Below are positions 4,805 to 55,922 of a stretch of DNA of 64,000 bases, in pieces. This stretch comes from Candidatus Babeliales bacterium (GTDB lineage Bacteria; Babelota; Babeliae; Babelales; JANWKD01): assembly GCA_963701665.1 (NCBI GenBank), contig OY969622.1, forward strand, positions 480,001 through 544,000. Direction: 5' to 3'. A model generated the notes under the pieces. The model saw only the letters and a list, made by a program, of their open reading frames with translations. It was not told the DNA's origin and did no database searches. The position numbers were made by a program, and so were the translations under genes. The stretch's first letter is position 1; the number at the start of each line of letters is the position of its first letter.

Positions 4805-4890
4805 GAAGCTTTTGTTTGATTACACTTTAAAAGAAGTTGACTTAAGTTCGGTTATATTTGTGCCGCGCAGAGTAACATTGGAAACAAAAT

Positions 4891-4989
4891 TGTCATTGCG
4901 AGCGCAAGCGTGGCAATCCAATTATAAAATTAGTTCCTTTAAGGATTAATTAAAGTTTGGATCCCCACGGCTAAAGCCTCGGGATGACA
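4891..4989. repeat. Family A palindromic REP-dimer/MITE, copy 1
   Basis: TGTCATTGCGAG..GTGGCAATCCA - AT spacer - TGGATCCCCACGG..CCTCGGGATGACA; degenerate outer arms extend to about 4837-5025. Confidence 0.9.
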
Positions 4990-5044
4990 TTTTGTTAGTC
5001 GTGAGTTTATATCGAACGCATGTAAATTTTTTAAGGGGGATATC

Positions 5045-6550: not shown

Positions 6551-6690
6551 TTAATGAGAATTCGATACAAACCGCACAACCAGCAAGAATGTCTTCCCGA
6601 GGCTTTAGCCGTGGGGATCCAGAATTTTAGTAAATTCCTTAAAGGAACTAATCTTATAAACTGGGTTGCCACGCTTCGCTCGCAATGACA
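6551..6690. repeat. Family A REP-dimer/MITE, copy 2 (retains left outer TIR)
   Basis: TTAATGAGAATTCGATA then GTCTTCCCGAGGCTTTAGCCGTGGGGATCC...GTTGCCACGCTTCGCTCGCAATGACA. Confidence 0.9.
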
Positions 6691-6758
6691 ATTTTGTTTT
6701 TTTATGGTGAAATTTTGTATGCTGTATCTGTACAGAACGGGTACAATAGATTAGTGTT

Positions 6759-14216: not shown

Positions 14217-14373
14217 CGTCATCCCGAGGAACGAAGTGACGTGGGGATCCAGAATTTTAGTAAATTCCTTTAAAGGATTGATTTTACTATCTGGGTTCTA
14301 CTTCGTTAAAACTTCGTAGAACAGGTTGCCAACTCCTTCGAAGCTCGTAGAGCGAAGTAGGTTTGTAATGACA
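14217..14373. repeat. Family A REP-dimer, copy 3, with two nested mini-hairpins
   Basis: CGTCATCCCGAG..GTGGGGATCC left arm; right arm interrupted by CTACTTCG..CTTCGTAG and CTTCGAAG..CGAAGTAG. Confidence 0.88.
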
Positions 14374-14384
14374 ATTTTGTTTTG

Positions 14385-18361: not shown

Positions 18362-18460
18362 GCAGGTCCTTTGCGAAGATAAATGCTTTTATAATTTTGA
18401 TGATCCTTCTAACCATAGCGCAATTGGCGCATTTTTATAACTATTTTTTTTAAAGTGATT

Positions 18461-18489
18461 TTGACTTTTACGAGCTTTTTCTTTAAAAT
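18461..18489 (+). promoter_or_regulatory. Sigma70-type promoter of the tRNA cluster
   Basis: TTGACT-17 bp-TAAAAT, 20 nt upstream of tRNA-Val. Confidence 0.65.
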
Positions 18490-18509
18490 CTCTTGTGTCC
18501 CAGTTTAAA

Positions 18510-18585
18510 GGGCGGTTAGCTCAGTTGGTAGAGCATCAGTCTTACAAACTGGGGGTCACTGGTTCGAGCCCAGTACCGCCCACCA
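18510..18585 (+). tRNA. tRNA-Val(TAC)
   Basis: Cloverleaf, loop CTTACAA, GGTTCGAG, encoded CCA. Confidence 0.97.
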
Positions 18586-18637
18586 GTCTTCGTTTATCCG
18601 GGCCTTCAGGCTCGGCAAACTACGCCTGGCTGCGCCA
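18586..18637 (+). repeat. Family C1 tRNA-trailer repeat
   Basis: GTCTTCGTTTATCCGGGCCTTCAGGCTCGGCAAACTACGCCTGGC..CGCCA directly after CCA. Confidence 0.9.
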
Positions 18638-18735
18638 TTTTCTTTAAATGAAAGTATGTATTAGAATTAGTACAACAAGGCCATGGGCAAGATCATATAA
18701 CTGGGTCATCAGTTATAAAGTAATTTGAAATTGAT

Positions 18736-18811
18736 TCCTCGGTAGCTCAGTTGGTAGAGCACACGACTGTTAATCGTTAGGTCGCTGGTTCGAGTCCAGC
18801 CCGAGGAGCCA
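18736..18811 (+). tRNA. tRNA-Asn(GTT)
   Basis: Cloverleaf, loop CTGTTAA, encoded CCA. Confidence 0.97.
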
Positions 18812-18895
18812 GTCTTCGTTTATCCGGGTCTTCAGGACTCGGCAAACTACGTCCTGACCGGCGTAGCTGAAAGCGAAGAGGGTCTGGCTTCGCCA
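18812..18895 (+). repeat. Family C1 tRNA-trailer repeat with nested insert (18857-18883)
   Basis: Same unit as 18586, with a compensatory stem change and an extra CGTAG..CGAAG hairpin. Confidence 0.88.
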
Positions 18896-18951
18896 TCTTC
18901 TTTAAGGATCAACTTATAAGAATTTGGTTTTTTCTTTTCTCCACTCTTGTT

Positions 18952-19028
18952 GGAGCTGTAGCTCAGCTGGTTAGAGCGTCCGCCTGTCACGCGGAAGGTC
19001 GTGGGTTCGAGTCCCATCAGCTCCGCCA
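18952..19028 (+). tRNA. tRNA-Asp(GTC)
   Basis: Cloverleaf, loop CTGTCAC, encoded CCA. Confidence 0.97.
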
Positions 19029-19300
19029 GTCTTCGTTTATCCGGGCCTTCAGGCTCGGCAAACTACGCCTGGCTTCGCCATTTAGGTGAACAAAATTTGA
19101 TACAAAAAACGAAGACTGCCCGGCAGAGCTTATACCAACGAAGAAGTTATTTTTTTCAAAGCAAATAGCGACGACGGGCTGGCACGGCCAGTTAAATGAC
19201 TTTAAATGTAAGTTAATTTTGATTGGCCAATGCGAAGACTGTCCGGCATAGCTTCACGAACGAAGCGAATGGTAATATTCAAGCAACAGCGGCGACGGAC
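19029..19300 (+). repeat. Family C1 unit (19029-19080) plus two C2 units (19107-19179, 19233-19300)
   Basis: C2 = CGAAGACTG(T/C)CCGGCA.AGCTT...AGCG.CGACGG(A/G)C; its start is the reverse complement of the C1 start. Confidence 0.88.
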
Positions 19301-19329
19301 TAACTCTATTCTAAAAGTAATCAAATTCT

Positions 19330-19571
19330 ATGTATTATGTTTATATTCTCAAATCTATAAATTTTCCAACAAAATATATGTTGGCTATACCCTTAATATT
19401 GAATCAAGGTTAGAAACACACAATAATGGTGGTTCTGTTTATACAAAAGAGCATAAACCTTGGGAGTTAATGTTTTATTGTGGTTTTCAAGATAAATTAA
19501 AAGCGATGAATTTTGAAAAATATTTAAAATCACATTCTGGTAGAATTTTTTTACAAAAAAGATTATTATAA
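19330..19571 (+). pseudogene. Small standalone GIY-YIG nuclease, frameshifted near codon 13-14
   Basis: MYYVYILKSINF in one frame, NKIYVGYT..RLETHNNG..YTKEHKPW..FEKYLKSHSGR in another; one base missing near 19366-19370 (could be a sequencing error). Confidence 0.85.
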
Positions 19572-19582
19572 TAATTAATGGA

Positions 19583-19704
19583 CATACTTCGCGTAAAGCT
19601 TCATATGGCAAGCCAGTCTTTTTAATGGATTGATTAAAAAAAGAAAATTAACAGTTTTAATCTGAAATGCGAAGTTTGCTCTTAATAGCCTTGGCGGAGT
19701 AGGA
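19583..19704 (+). repeat. Divergent C1/C2-like pair downstream of the GIY-YIG gene
   Basis: CATACTTCGC..GCTTCATATGGCAAGCCA and GCGAAGT..TAGCCTTGGCGGAG. Confidence 0.6.
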
Positions 19705-19747
19705 TAGTTCTTAACCTTAAAATTATATATTTGGAAGAATAAAGTTT

Positions 19748-20203
19748 ATGAAAAAATATTTTCTTGTAGTGTTTTTTGCAATAATCCAACTGAATGCGAT
19801 GGAAGTCACTGAGGATCAGAATGTTGATTCCTTTTTGCCACAAAATGAGCAGGATTTCGAAGAAAAAGAAAGAGCGCTTGCAGCGAGACAAAAAGCACTC
19901 AAAGAATTCTATTTAAGCGAAAAAGAAAAAATTGACCTAGAGCGACAAGTTACTAAAACAGTATTTGAAACAAGACGACGACAAGAAGATGATCGGTATC
20001 TTCGGGACAAGCAAAAGATTGATGAGCAAATTAAAGCCGTTAAAAAAGAAGCAGACGAAGCATTCAATGAAGTTATTGTAATGACTATGCATATGCATCA
20101 TAACATCTTAAGGGCGAGACAAGTACCATTTCACCTCAGAAAAAAATTAGTGGTTGAACGTATCTTAGATAATATTGTCGAGTATCATTGCAAAGATTTG
20201 TAA
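19748..20203 (+). CDS. Hypothetical secreted coiled-coil protein
   Basis: Signal peptide ..LNAME; charged helical body. Confidence 0.7.
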   Translation: MKKYFLVVFFAIIQLNAMEVTEDQNVDSFLPQNEQDFEEKERALAARQKALKEFYLSEKEKIDLERQVTKTVFETRRRQEDDRYLRDKQKIDEQIKAVKKEADEAFNEVIVMTMHMHHNILRARQVPFHLRKKLVVERILDNIVEYHCKDL

Positions 20204-25392: not shown

Positions 25393-25559
25393 CGTTTTAA
25401 TAGTATTTATAATAGAACTGCCCTTTTCAAAGCAAAATAGACTCTAAATGATGAAAAATATTTAAAATCACATTGTGGCGGGAATATTCTTGCAAAAGAG
25501 AAACAACAAATACATTACTAGTCATAAGATGAATTTATAAATATGAGAGTAGATGAAGT

Positions 25560-32562: not shown

Positions 32563-32667
32563 TGTCATCCCGAGGCTTTAGCCGTGGGGATCCAAAATTT
32601 AATTAATTCATTAAAGGATTTATTAAAATTTGGATTGCCACGCCAACTAAGTTGGCTCGCAATGACG
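32563..32667. repeat. Family A REP-dimer, copy 4
   Basis: TGTCATCCCGAGGCTTTAGCCGTGGGGATCCA...TGGATTGCCACGCCAACTAAGTTGGCTCGCAATGAC. Confidence 0.9.
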
Positions 32668-37491: not shown

Positions 37492-37591
37492 CGTATTTCA
37501 ATCAAAAATAAAAAAATTTTCCAATATGATGAAATATAATACAAAAGAGTAAAGAAATAAAGACTAGGAAAATTAACTGTTTAAACAGAGG

Positions 37592-37794
37592 TGTCATCAT
37601 GACCCTACTTCGCTCTGCGAGCTTCGAAGGGCTTCGGGGACCTGTTCTACGAAGCCTTGGCGAAGTAGAATCCAGTCTTTAAAATGAAAACCTTATCAGA
37701 CTGGATTCCTACGACAACTTCGTTGTCTCAGAATGACATCATTTTTCTAGGAATATTTTCACCTGCGTTTGAATGTTTATCGAATTTGCGTTAA
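37592..37794. repeat. Family A REP-dimer/MITE, copy 5, nested hairpins, retains right outer TIR
   Basis: TGTCATCATGA..AATCCAG..CTGGATTCC..CTCAGAATGACA; ends TATCGAATTTGCGTTAA. Confidence 0.85.
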
Positions 37795-44501: not shown

Positions 44502-44786
44502 ATGCCAAAGAAAAAAACAAACTATTGGGTTCATCGCGTGCAAGAAACCTCGAATGCGATGGATCTTCCCGAGGGAATATTTACTTGGTCGCCTCCAGCT
44601 ATTGCACGAGGGTTAAAGAAAGCAGTGCTTGAAAGCACGCGCACAAAAGGGACTAAATTCCAATCGGCAATGTCGATGCTCAATTTTTACATCAATCGAG
44701 CGGGAACGAAGCTGCCTGCAAAAGATAAAGAGCGGCTTGAACAAGCGAAGATTGAACTGAGAAAAGTTTTTGGAAAAATTGATTAA
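44502..44786 (+). CDS. DUF3175-like small protein
   Basis: SNAMDL, SAMSMLNFYINRAG, LEQAKIELRKVF. Confidence 0.8.
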   Translation: MPKKKTNYWVHRVQETSNAMDLPEGIFTWSPPAIARGLKKAVLESTRTKGTKFQSAMSMLNFYINRAGTKLPAKDKERLEQAKIELRKVFGKID

Positions 44787-44977
44787 CGCGAATTCGATAT
44801 AAATTATGTAATCAGCAAGAATGTCATCCCGAGGCATTAGCCGTGGGGATCCAAACTTTAATTAAATCCTTAAAGGAACTAATTTTATAATTGGATTGCC
44901 ACGCTTCGCTCGCAATGACAATTTTGTTTTCAATGTTACCTTAGGCAGCAAAATTCAATGTATCGAATTTGCGTTAA
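44783..44977. mobile_element. Complete family A MITE (copy 7) with 17-bp terminal inverted repeats beginning TTAA
   Basis: TTAACGCGAATTCGATA ... TATCGAATTTGCGTTAA (16/17) enclosing the REP dimer. Confidence 0.85.
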
Positions 44978-48683: not shown

Positions 48684-48784
48684 TGTCATTGCGAGCCCTT
48701 GTAAAGGGCGTGGCAACCCAGATAATAAAATTAATTCATTAAAGGAATTATTAAAGTTCTGGATCCCCACGTCGCTTCGCTCCT
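48684..48784. repeat. Family A REP-dimer, copy 8, split by IS110 (remainder at 49982-49993)
   Basis: ..GGATCCCCACGTCGCTTCGCTC-CT | IS | CT-CGGGATGACA reconstitutes an intact arm. Confidence 0.9.
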
Positions 48785-48864: not shown

Positions 48865-49005
48865 AAAAGCTGATAGATCTCGTCACGCTCCTGGTTTAGA
48901 AGAACCGTTCCTGAGTTTGAGACTATCAGCTTACACAAAATTACCTCGAACAATCACTAGAGACGTATTAGGTATACGATCTCGTATGTTTACAAGGCTG
49001 AGGTA
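48865..49005 (+). ncRNA. Predicted bridge RNA core of IS110 #1 (target- and donor-binding loops)
   Basis: Stem AAGCTGATAG/CTATCAGCTT; LTG CACGCTCCT 48884-92; RTG TCCTGAG 48909-15; LDG ACAATCACT 48950-58; RDG TACAAG 48991-96; true 5' end unknown. Confidence 0.85.
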
Positions 49006-49008
49006 TTT

Positions 49009-49950
49009 ATGAAAAACATAGCAGAAGTATATGTAGGTGTCGATATTTCAAAAAATAATCTCGATATTTATGTGTATCCTATAGGAAAATTCTTTAAAGT
49101 AGCTAACTCAGAAGTTGGCATACAGAACATAATCAAGGAATTAGCTCACTATCAAGTTACACAAATTGCCTGTGAAGCAACAGGTGGCTATGAACAATTA
49201 CTTGCCCAATTACTCAAAAAGAACCGATATTCACTTTGGATCGTTGATCCACGAAGGATAAAAGCTTTTATTATAGCTACTGGCTGTAAAAGTAAAACCG
49301 ATAAAATTGATGCTAAAAAAATTGCTGAATTCGCTTCTAAAAATTCTCCTAGTTACGAGATTGTTAACAAAAGTGAGAATCAGCATAAACTACAAGCTCT
49401 AGTTAACCGTAAAAATGATTTAGTAAAATTTTTAGCTGCTGAGAAAACACGACTTAAACATCCTTCTCACGTATTATATGTTCCTGATATAAAAAGATTT
49501 ATTGCACTCTTAGAAAGTGAAATTAAATCAATTGAGTCTCGAATACAGGATTTAGTCAAAGATGATGAAGAGTTACATACAAAATCAAACATTTTGGAAT
49601 CAATCCCAGGAATCGGTAAAGCTACAGCTGCAACATTACTTTCTTTTGTCCCTGAGCTTGGGCAGTTAAGCGACAAAAAAATATCCGCTCTAATTGGTGT
49701 CTGTCCTTATGACAATGAAAGCGGCAATTACAAAGGCAAAAAATTTATTAAGCATGGCAGGCATATTCCTCGTAAAGCACTTTATATGTGTGCATTGACC
49801 ACGGTAAAGCACCATCTTCCTTTAAGGGAATTTTACCAGCGATTAATGGATGCTAAAAAACCTTTTAAAGTAGCTATCGTTGCTATTATGCATAAGCTCA
49901 TTATAATTGCCAATGCTCTATTAAAAAGGGGCGAGTTATGTAGAGCTTGA
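49009..49950 (+). CDS. IS110-family DEDD recombinase/transposase
   Basis: GVD, CEATG, KTDKID, IPGIG, ESG (catalytic Ser), ALYM. Confidence 0.95.
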   Translation: MKNIAEVYVGVDISKNNLDIYVYPIGKFFKVANSEVGIQNIIKELAHYQVTQIACEATGGYEQLLAQLLKKNRYSLWIVDPRRIKAFIIATGCKSKTDKIDAKKIAEFASKNSPSYEIVNKSENQHKLQALVNRKNDLVKFLAAEKTRLKHPSHVLYVPDIKRFIALLESEIKSIESRIQDLVKDDEELHTKSNILESIPGIGKATAATLLSFVPELGQLSDKKISALIGVCPYDNESGNYKGKKFIKHGRHIPRKALYMCALTTVKHHLPLREFYQRLMDAKKPFKVAIVAIMHKLIIIANALLKRGELCRA

Positions 49951-52966: not shown

Positions 52967-53041
52967 GCCGAGGTAGCTCAGTGGTAGAGCATGTGCCTGA
53001 AGAGCACAGTGTCGGTGGTTCGATTCCGCTCCTCGGCACCA
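52967..53041 (+). tRNA. tRNA-Phe(GAA)
   Basis: Cloverleaf, stem TGTGC/GCACA, loop CTGAAGA, encoded CCA. Confidence 0.95.
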
Positions 53042-53247
53042 ATCTACGCCTTCATGGGGAAAAACTTCGATGTGTTATTTGGCTACGATTGGTTACGCCA
53101 GTCTTCGTTTATCCGCGCCTTCCGGCTCGGCAAACTACGCCTGGCTTCGCCCTGCATGAAGATTAACAATAATAAAAAACGAAGACTGTCCGGCATAGCT
53201 TCTTTAACGTAGAAATTGATATTCTCAAAACAAAAGCGACGACGGAC
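53042..53247 (+). repeat. Family C trailer array after tRNA-Phe (variant C1, canonical C1, C2)
   Basis: ATCTACGCC..GGCTACGATTGGTTACGCCA, then GTCTTCGTTTATCCG..CTACGCCTGGCTTCGCC, then CGAAGACTGTCCGGCATAGC..GCGACGACGGAC. Confidence 0.88.
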
Positions 53248-54831: not shown

Positions 54832-54970
54832 AAAAGCTGATAGATCTCGTTGTCGCGCTTGGCCCTGAGAGACCGCCCGGTAGTTTGAGACTATCAGCTT
54901 TCAAATAGATTATCTCGAACAATCACTAGAGACATAGTGATATGATCTCGAATGTTTACAAGCAAGAGGA
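54832..54970 (+). ncRNA. Predicted bridge RNA core of IS110 #2
   Basis: Same scaffold as #1; LTG TGTCGCGCT 54851-59 equals left flank 54749-57; RTG CCGGTAG 54877-83; LDG ACAATCACT 54919-27; RDG TACAAG 54957-62. Confidence 0.87.
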
Positions 54971-54974
54971 ATGT

Positions 54975-55922
54975 ATGAAAAACATAGCAAAAGTATATAT
55001 CGGTGTCGATATTTCAAAAGATGAACTTGATATTTCTGTGTATCCAACAGGAAAATCTTTTAAAATTCCAAATGATAAACCTGGGATAAAAAAAATTATC
55101 AGATTTCTTACTAAGCATGATGTTGCACAAATTGCCTGCGAAGCAACTGGCGGCTATGAAAAATTGCTTGCACAATTGCTACAAAAAAGCTCTTATCCTT
55201 TATGGATAGTGGATCCAAGAAGGATCAAAGGCTTTATCATTGCTAGTGGCTGTAGGAGTAAAACTGATAAAAATGATGCAAAGAAAATTGCTGAATTCGC
55301 TGCTAAGAATTCACCCGACTTTGAAGTAATCAACAAAAGTGAATATCACGATTCACTCGTAGCTTTGATTAATCGCAAAAATGATTTGATAAAATTTCGT
55401 GCATCCGAGAAAACCAGATTAAAACATCCTATACACATGTTGCATCATGCAAATATAGAAAAATTCATCAAAACATTAGAAAAGGAAATTAAATCAATTA
55501 CGTTACAAATACAAAGTCTTGTGCAACAGGATGAAGCTTTACATGCAAAGTCAAAAATTCTAGAAACTATCCCAGGTATTGGCGAATCTTCTGCCATACT
55601 CTTATTGTCGTTTGTTCCTGAACTCGGGCACATAAGTAATAGCAAAATATCAGCACTCATTGGCGTTTGTCCTTATGAAAATGAAAGTGGAAAATATAAG
55701 GGTAAAAAGTTTATTAGAGGCGGTAGAACGATTCCAAGGAAAGCTCTTTACATGTGTGCTTTGGCAACAATTAAATATTACCCACCTTTAAAAGCATTTT
55801 ACAATCGACTAATCACAGCTAAAAAACCTTTCAAAGTCGCTCTTGTTGCCGTAATGCATAAACTTATTATTATTGCTAATTCACTCTTAAGAAAAGGTGA
55901 AGTATGTGTAACTTTTAATTGA
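54975..55922 (+). CDS. IS110-family DEDD recombinase/transposase
   Basis: GVD, CEATG, KTDKND, IPGIG, ESG, ALYM; start set by alignment to #1 and GAGGA RBS. Confidence 0.95.
   Translation: MKNIAKVYIGVDISKDELDISVYPTGKSFKIPNDKPGIKKIIRFLTKHDVAQIACEATGGYEKLLAQLLQKSSYPLWIVDPRRIKGFIIASGCRSKTDKNDAKKIAEFAAKNSPDFEVINKSEYHDSLVALINRKNDLIKFRASEKTRLKHPIHMLHHANIEKFIKTLEKEIKSITLQIQSLVQQDEALHAKSKILETIPGIGESSAILLLSFVPELGHISNSKISALIGVCPYENESGKYKGKKFIRGGRTIPRKALYMCALATIKYYPPLKAFYNRLITAKKPFKVALVAVMHKLIIIANSLLRKGEVCVTFN

Follow-up and report, generated by a model that had tools for sequence, protein, structure and literature searches.

tRNA 3′ ends are common integration sites, and the locus described here raises the question of what has settled on them: a set of structured DNA units that a small GIY-YIG nuclease recognizes or spreads, or RNA trailers that serve tRNA 3′ processing. 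The window is a stretch of 64,000 nucleotides comprising positions 480001 to 544000 of the 1.34-Mb single-contig genome of a member of the Babeliales, whose proteins have Candidatus Dependentiae/Babeliales as their named relatives. A first-pass annotation had described two kinds of unit in it, C1 and C2, and that description was borne out in all points open to checking (Table 1). A C1 unit abuts all four tRNA genes of the window (Val, Asn, Asp, and Phe) with zero gap, and its outer stem uses the CCA of the tRNA (CCAG/CTGG in type A; CCAAT/ATTGG in type B, found after tRNA-Phe). The end of four of the five C1 units regenerates CGCCA, the second unit after tRNA-Phe ending in CGCCC, and C2 units start with the reverse complement of the C1 start (CGAAGACTG at 19110, 19233, and 53180). 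Both of the reported compensatory changes were found, the one at tRNA-Asn being accompanied by a 1-nt insertion, and searches for Y1/HUH transposases gave no match in the window, with seven matches elsewhere in the genome. C1/C2 pairs had also been said to bracket the GIY-YIG gene. Such pairs exist on both sides, but the downstream pair is degenerate and of another subtype (TA). By a standard DNA energy model, single units are unexceptional (z −0.5 to −1.5) and C1 taken together with the C2 leader is exceptional (z −2.7). The window also holds two paralogous genes, about 75% identical and 5966 nt apart (48969–49950 and 54935–55922).

Table 1. Coordinates of tRNA genes, repeat units, and the nuclease gene in the window (position 1 is the first nucleotide of the window)
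Feature	Position	Strand	Remark
tRNA-Val(TAC)	18510..18585	+	encoded CCA is the 5′ arm of C1
C1, type A	18586..18637	+	alone, without C2 ahead of the next tRNA
tRNA-Asn(GTT)	18736..18811	+	
C1, type A	18812..18895	+	compensatory change and nested purine-strand core hairpin (18858–18882)
tRNA-Asp(GTC)	18952..19028	+	anchor of the gene-bearing module
C1, type A	19029..19080	+	after tRNA-Asp
C2	19110..19190	+	leader complementary to C1 start, 82 nt after CCA; TGG..CCA mini-hairpin at end
C2	19233..19300	+	second C2 of the tRNA-Asp module
GIY-YIG gene	19330..19571	+	Slx1-like, single-domain; frameshifted ~10–15 codons past the ATG; likely pseudogene
C1, other subtype (TA)	19583..19615	+	degenerate, downstream of the GIY-YIG gene
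C2	19670..19704	+	degenerate, downstream of the GIY-YIG gene
tRNA-Phe(GAA)	52967..53041	+	
C1, type B	53042..53100	+	after tRNA-Phe; regenerated CCA at end
C1, type A	53101..53151	+	on the CCA regenerated by the type B unit
C2	53180..53247	+	of the tRNA-Phe module
GTCAT..AATCC repeats	4858–4994, 6551–6700, 14227–14383, 32564–32666, 37583–37737, 44783–44953, 48685–48784		

Across the whole genome, C1 starts at the base after CCA in 20 of the 37 tRNA/tmRNA genes, a full C2 is added in 16 of these, and the GIY-YIG gene is added in 2; none of the 37 carries C2 without C1. The motif RTCTWCG accompanies 41 of 32,882 CCA sites genome-wide vs 20 of the 37 tRNA ends (binomial ~1e-48), and placement of C1 at tRNA ends by chance is excluded. 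The layout of C1 is CCA-NN-CTNCG-hairpin-CTNCG-N′N′-TGG-short loop-CCA. Read as its reverse complement, C1 is a unit of the kind that forms the core of C2 (one profile matches both, on opposite strands), and this purine strand carries two CGNAG tags in a facing arrangement. The leader of C2, which repeats the C1 start in reverse complement, lies 79–87 nt past the CCA in 15 of 17 cases. Units are also stacked and nested: after tRNA-Phe and tRNA-Thr, a type B C1 regenerates a CCA onto which a type A C1 is stacked, and core hairpins lie within C1 at tRNA-Asn and tRNA-Thr. Trailers of other kinds were observed as well. One at genome positions 476411–476445 follows a tRNA CCA and shares the TGG..CCA end without having CTNCG tags, this variant precedes a nuclease gene at two loci from other genomes (L094 and L116), and a common, unrelated trailer follows both tRNA-Glu and tRNA-Arg at genome positions 228777 and 358382.

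The nuclease gene of the window matches PF01541 (1e-14) and is interrupted. An ATG at 19330 opens a frame of 27 codons, and the catalytic remainder lies in a different frame that ends at 19571. Because a short-read contig over the break (19328–19478; depth of about 2, from one study, possibly of the source sample) matches the assembly with no difference or gap, the sequence is probably that of a real pseudogene. Long-read error was rejected as the cause of the frameshift on the strength of the same agreement at this depth, and programmed −1 slippage was set aside since homologues read through in one frame, which makes decay the simpler account. Among the sequencing runs screened, none contained half of the sampled words, and the single RNA run contained 5%. 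Intact paralogues of the gene are present elsewhere in the genome (among them 350392–350634 on the minus strand and 645313–645579 on the plus strand). In the window itself, a 51-nt stretch at 25447–25497 resembles the 3′ terminus of the gene (19509–19559; 76% identity) and is possibly the remnant of another copy.

There are eight small GIY-YIG genes in the genome, which fall into two clades, plus one long protein. Four of the small genes, including that of the window, adjoin C1/C2, and the other four are Ssn-like. Proteins of the C1/C2-linked clade have 80 amino acids and match PF01541 only, making them single-domain small GIY-YIG proteins, and in a 42-row alignment of the clade, the columns of the catalytic Tyr, Gly, Arg, His, and Glu show little or no variation. 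The structure model of the nuclease is confident (pLDDT 95.5), its 80 residues forming the catalytic domain alone. The closest folds are those of Slx1 (E 7e-4, TM 0.73) and At-HIGLE, with weak E-values and with no Ssn structure among the matches. The best fold and sequence matches overall (7cq2, 7wme, and 1zg2, representing Slx1, At-HIGLE, and UPF0213 proteins) likewise have weak E-values, and the modeled likeness suggests structure-selective nicking. Unlike these proteins, the nuclease studied here has no RING or Slx4-type partner domain and is tied to a mobile repeat. In the NCBIfam search, no family scored above its cut-off for the nucleases.

The proposal that nuclease, repeats, and tRNA ends are linked was examined across genomes with a profile of the C1/C2-linked clade made from the 42-row alignment. 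The loci comprised the best 80 of 579 confirmed matches from 8 of 64 parts of GTDB and 30 from 121 Babeliales genomes; after removal of five duplicates and one locus of the genome studied here, 104 loci from about ten phyla were left, which are not independent samples. Twenty-seven Ssn-like loci (30 minus one duplicate and two from this genome) served as the control, and repeats were scored by regular expressions, nhmmer profiles, and pair counts. A same-strand tRNA or tmRNA gene lies within 600 nt upstream of the nuclease gene in 81 of the 104 loci; 13 kinds are represented, and 80 of the 81 encode CCA. Strict C1/C2 units were found upstream in 78 loci (1.1 after shuffling) and downstream in 4, and a lenient pattern detected repeats upstream of 95 of the 104 genes and downstream of 15. 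None of the 27 Ssn-like controls has a tRNA/tmRNA upstream, and none has a strict C1/C2 upstream. The association is strong and specific to one clade, as the co-occurrence figures below also indicate. The genomic result that the first-pass annotation had named as refuting, repeats unlinked to GIY-YIG genes across genomes, was not observed. The RAYT-like bracketing that had been envisaged did not prove to be the general layout: the usual arrangement is the one-sided order tRNA-C1-C2-gene, and repeats flank both sides of the gene only in some copies, that of the window included. At four loci (L048, L089, L047, and L109), the module or parts of it are tandemly duplicated directly past the nuclease stop codon, with a second gene in L048.

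The stems covary. Among 60 canonical units (21 of 81 were non-canonical and left out), 52 show complementarity between the dinucleotide that follows CCA and the one that precedes TGG, with 10 pair types represented, compared with a shuffled mean of 11.7 and maximum of 22. In 40 of 49 cases (8.7 after shuffling), the C2 leader likewise complements the dinucleotide that follows CCA. Co-occurrence was scored in 120 Babeliales genomes, this genome excluded, which are mostly incomplete assemblies and include kin that are not independent. The tRNA-anchored repeat was present in 63 of 73 genomes with the gene vs 13 of 47 without it (OR 16.5; 0 of 20,000 within-family permutations), as scored by a pattern that misses long or variant units and finds 7 of the 20 in this genome. 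Ten genomes have the gene without the repeat, and in 13 the repeat occurs without a detected gene, in up to 10 copies. Neither Ssn-like genes (15 of 20 vs 61 of 100 genomes, OR 1.9, p 0.31) nor Y1 genes (24 of 36 vs 52 of 84, OR 1.2, p 0.68) are linked to the tRNA-anchored repeat in these 120 genomes. Five viral contigs carry C1, none of them with a nuclease gene in the sequence examined.

A pairing of small GIY-YIG nucleases with hairpin repeats has its closest known precedent, unmentioned in the first-pass annotation, in the Ssn nucleases (cd10448) and their NTS/SRM repeats (Chenal et al. 2025; PMC11893778). SLX1-like proteins are reported there as the sister clade of Ssn (supplementary file 5). 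Small bacterial GIY-YIG proteins of the SLX1-like kind are very common, and the authors describe them as sparsely characterized. As described in that paper, the Ssn system resembles the present one in tying a single-domain GIY-YIG protein of ~80–100 amino acids to oriented hairpin repeats, of which there are also gene-less copies. It differs in that the protein clade and the repeat are both different, the gene here follows the repeat pair rather than lying between its members, and the module is anchored at a tRNA CCA, whereas the word tRNA is absent from the main text of PMC11893778. Profile alignment of the C1/C2-linked and the Ssn-like clades gave 33% identity (probability 96%, E 5.5e-9), and neither clade's profile search returned the other clade's copies in this genome. 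The published SRM pattern occurs in 0 of the 104 C1/C2-clade loci vs 4 of the 27 Ssn-like loci, and a loose version occurs in 5 of 104 (4.4 after shuffling) vs 13 of 27. By analogy, the nuclease may work in an Ssn-like mode; its flanks fail to show the SRM pattern, so we do not assign it to Ssn/SRM.

The four Ssn-like genes of this genome lie between inverted repeats of the GTCAT..AATCC type, in place of the spacer. These repeats form a second, larger family of SRM/CGTC-like dimers with an AT-rich spacer and 159 starts genome-wide. The published SRM pattern has one site in the genome and none beside the four genes, and because of this absence, we use the terms Ssn-like and SRM-like rather than assigning membership. 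Core hairpins of the C1/C2 type lie inside SRM-like repeats (in the window at 14271–14383 and 37583–37695), almost all of 33 core matches genome-wide being found there, and because of this nesting the two repeat systems interlock. The core hairpin is thus promiscuous, with 27 of the 36 perfectly paired cores of this genome located away from tRNAs and from these genes, mostly in SRM-like repeats; only the CCA-anchored C1/C2 pair is tRNA-specific.

Exchange of the module could be followed at one tRNA-Ala gene of Bradyrhizobium, for which the best-matching 30 of 60 orthologous loci were examined. Fifteen carry a CG-type C1 with one type of nuclease and 11 carry a GC-type C1 with another; the remainder are two repeats without a gene, one decayed remnant, and one unrelated insert. 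Repeat type and nuclease type agree in 26 of 26 loci, with no mixed locus; the nucleases are 56% identical between types vs 83–86% within them. The type is distributed at random on the tree of the upstream flank (nine changes in 29 rows; 8.9 after shuffling; AU p 2e-67) and on that of the downstream flank (eight changes in 25 rows; 8.5 after shuffling). Near-sister genomes part at the base directly past CCA and come together again a short way beyond the stop codon; the right end is not conserved. At this locus, repeat and gene are exchanged as a unit, in agreement with both flank trees. Over a wider range, the CG type forms one branch of the nuclease tree (16 rows, support 90), which takes in genes behind Ala, Leu, and Val tRNAs from two phyla. 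In this tree of 73 rows and few columns, the GT type is clustered, the AC type is not, and the GC type is scattered (13 changes for 29 rows). The two Bradyrhizobium types have dN/dS values of 0.046 and 0.088 (from 10 intact genes per type, with usable values for 31 and 41 of the 45 pairs), and the genes are under purifying selection. The alleles are old, as judged from the large synonymous distances (dS 1.4–1.8 within each type). Five of the 15 CG-type copies are broken.

The reading that we favor, with moderate confidence, is that an inverted hairpin pair and an 80-residue Slx1-like GIY-YIG gene make up an exchangeable module, whose product would nick the matching hairpin in single-stranded DNA and spread the module along with gene-less copies. 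Target-primed copying would explain an exact left end, a ragged right end, and the series C1 (20) > C1+C2 (16) > C1+C2+gene (2), although this length series also fits loss from the right. The module is not a classical transposon because it has no conserved right end. No pair of near-identical strains that differ by a fresh insertion occurs among the loci compared.

The strongest competitor, which we rate as unlikely yet serious, is an allelic locus kept by the host. It shares the step of hairpin recognition with the favored reading: the nuclease would cut the matching hairpin and thereby filter incoming single-stranded DNA or guard tRNA attachment sites, and the patchwork on the flank trees would reflect ordinary recombination of old alleles, which could occur between the conserved flanks. 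The strong purifying selection and the age of the alleles speak for such a locus, as do the retention of the gene at the same site in 26 of the 30 Bradyrhizobium loci and the restriction of transformation by SsnA in Neisseria (PMC11893778). It leaves unexplained, however, why identical C1 units stand on 20 different tRNA genes of one genome, why one nuclease/repeat type occurs on several tRNAs and in two phyla, and why broken copies are frequent (5 of the 15 CG genes, and that of the window).

The proposal that C1 and C2 are RNA trailers for tRNA 3′ processing or termination, with the nuclease gene merely using the tRNA promoter, is in our view improbable. The exact start of C1 at CCA and its capacity to pair with that CCA, the stable stem of C1 start and C2 leader, and the narrow CCA-to-C2 spacing would all suit an RNA element. 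The polarity of the loops does not. In C1, the inner loop has the sequence C(GNA)G on the non-tRNA strand in 23 of 54 units and never on the tRNA strand, where the tags face each other as pyrimidine mismatches. In C2, it is the sense strand that shows C(GNA)G, in 11 of 41 inner loops, with no case of the reverse. Terminal loops in this genome are likewise GNA on the antisense strand in 22 of 29 cases, with all four nucleotides seen at N. A general rule that the GNA loop of the terminal TGG..CCA hairpin is always antisense was rejected, as it is true in this genome only and many alphaproteobacterial copies have the loop on the sense strand. Where GNA tags face each other, they form stacks of sheared G-A pairs, and CTTG and TTTA loops are stable in DNA. 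Mini-hairpins of the GCGNAGC type are described as having exceptional stability in DNA form and being far less stable as RNA (PMC13037366). C1 is, moreover, absent from 17 of the 37 tRNA genes, Rfam gave no match for C1/C2 in 18400–19800 (where only three tRNAs pass), and type matching with the nuclease would be left unexplained. A tRNA 3′ processing role, one of the two options initially raised, is thus disfavored, although a secondary RNA effect on the pre-tRNA may accompany a role as DNA. The loop data favor single-stranded DNA as the substrate, and the inverted pair would supply one on either strand.

We also give little credence to the view that a Y1/RAYT transposase spreads the units as GTAG-type REPs, with the GIY-YIG gene as a passenger. 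GTAG REPs consist of a 20–40 bp palindrome with an unpaired GTAG tag at one end and often form dimers (Di Nocera et al. 2013; PMC3733652). The purine strand of C1/C2 carries GTAG/GAAG tags like theirs, and both C1/C2 and the REPs, REPINs, and RAYT of that paper show inverted dimers with a spacer, nesting, modularity, and an excess of gene-less copies that far outnumber the enzyme gene. C1/C2 units, however, have GNAG tags on both arms, mostly GAAG (a likeness assessed at the level of tags and dimers), occupy a fixed and usually one-sided position at tRNA ends, and are partnered by a GIY-YIG rather than an HUH/Y1 enzyme; the term GIY has no occurrence in the accessible text of PMC3733652. One Babeliales Y1 gene, encoding 127 amino acids, is indeed bracketed by inverted repeats with the same CCA-GC-CTTCG core hairpin in a RAYT-like layout (L207:1350–2130, G117:C34), and this genome has Y1 genes of its own: five equal-scoring, IS200-like genes, three of them in tandem, plus one broken copy (genome positions 79824, 216174, 1253004, 1253570, 1254136, and 53104). 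Bracketing was nevertheless found at only 1 of 42 Y1 loci, C1/C2 units are absent from the flanks of the two Y1 loci of this genome that were inspected, and Y1 genes do not co-occur with the tRNA-anchored repeat (OR 1.2, p 0.68). The Y1 gene at genome position 79824 directly adjoins an SRM-like repeat.

Least probable of all is that the Ssn-like nucleases, and not the C1/C2-linked clade, act on C1/C2, for which core hairpins nested in SRM-like repeats at ~33 places and a lenient match downstream in 3 of the 27 Ssn-like loci (0.3 after shuffling) could be cited, against 0 of 27 loci lying near a tRNA or having C1/C2 upstream and the lack of co-occurrence (p 0.31). Even when taken jointly, the RNA, RAYT, and Ssn explanations are unlikely.

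Under the favored reading of an exchangeable module, events might proceed as follows. The module starts at the base after the CCA of a tRNA or tmRNA with C1, followed by C2 and then the GIY-YIG gene. By analogy with SsnA, the substrate would be the purine strand, which bears the facing CGNAG tags and the GNA loops. The nuclease would bind and nick either the hairpin of the purine strand or the tRNA end next to it. With the nick placed at CCA or close by, a 3′ end would be freed, the CCA-3′ end could pair with the TGG of a donor hairpin, and a host repair polymerase would extend it, so that C1, C2, and sometimes the gene are copied. The gene of the window would be a dead copy, and its intact paralogues would act in trans. 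We infer this mode of cleavage and spreading; it is best read as that of a sister system of the Ssn/SRM single-stranded DNA nucleases that uses tRNA 3′ ends. More tentatively, and with real doubt on our part, the module may be a minimal mobile element of ~400 bp that has no transposase, integrase, or reverse transcriptase, relying on a nick at the tRNA CCA and target-primed host synthesis, and whose rival alleles displace each other across many phyla.

Seg-type homing endonucleases carry a separate DNA-binding domain beyond the catalytic domain. Phage T4 SegB, a free-standing homing endonuclease encoded by a GIY-YIG gene in tRNA loci that is inherited as a block, recognizes a T-arm motif common to tRNA genes and makes double-strand cuts, and its abstract mentions no hairpin repeats (PMC2330249). 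The present system resembles it in that the gene is exchanged as a block at a fixed locus, here as two alleles scattered on both flank trees. It differs in that the protein is the catalytic domain alone and is chromosomal, being unseen in the five viral contigs with C1.

A literature search yielded no description of tRNA-anchored hairpins with this nuclease, most subscription papers being outside its reach and supplementary files 13–14 of PMC11893778 outside its scope. The system is apparently a widespread, unpublished variant of the theme of hairpin plus small GIY-YIG nuclease, distinguished by its anchoring at tRNA ends and by allele swapping. It bears on the possible mobile-element nature of GIY-YIG/hairpin pairs such as Ssn, a hypothesis raised in PMC11893778, and on what spreads palindromic repeats that lack a transposase, a question left open for CGTC repeats in PMC3733652. 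SLX1-like GIY-YIG proteins gain a candidate substrate, legible in the flanks of their own genes, and the one Bradyrhizobium tRNA at which two types of nuclease each go with their own hairpin constitutes a natural experiment in culturable hosts. If the favored reading is true, small hairpin-specific nucleases would gain a second family, and tRNA 3′ ends a new type of occupant.
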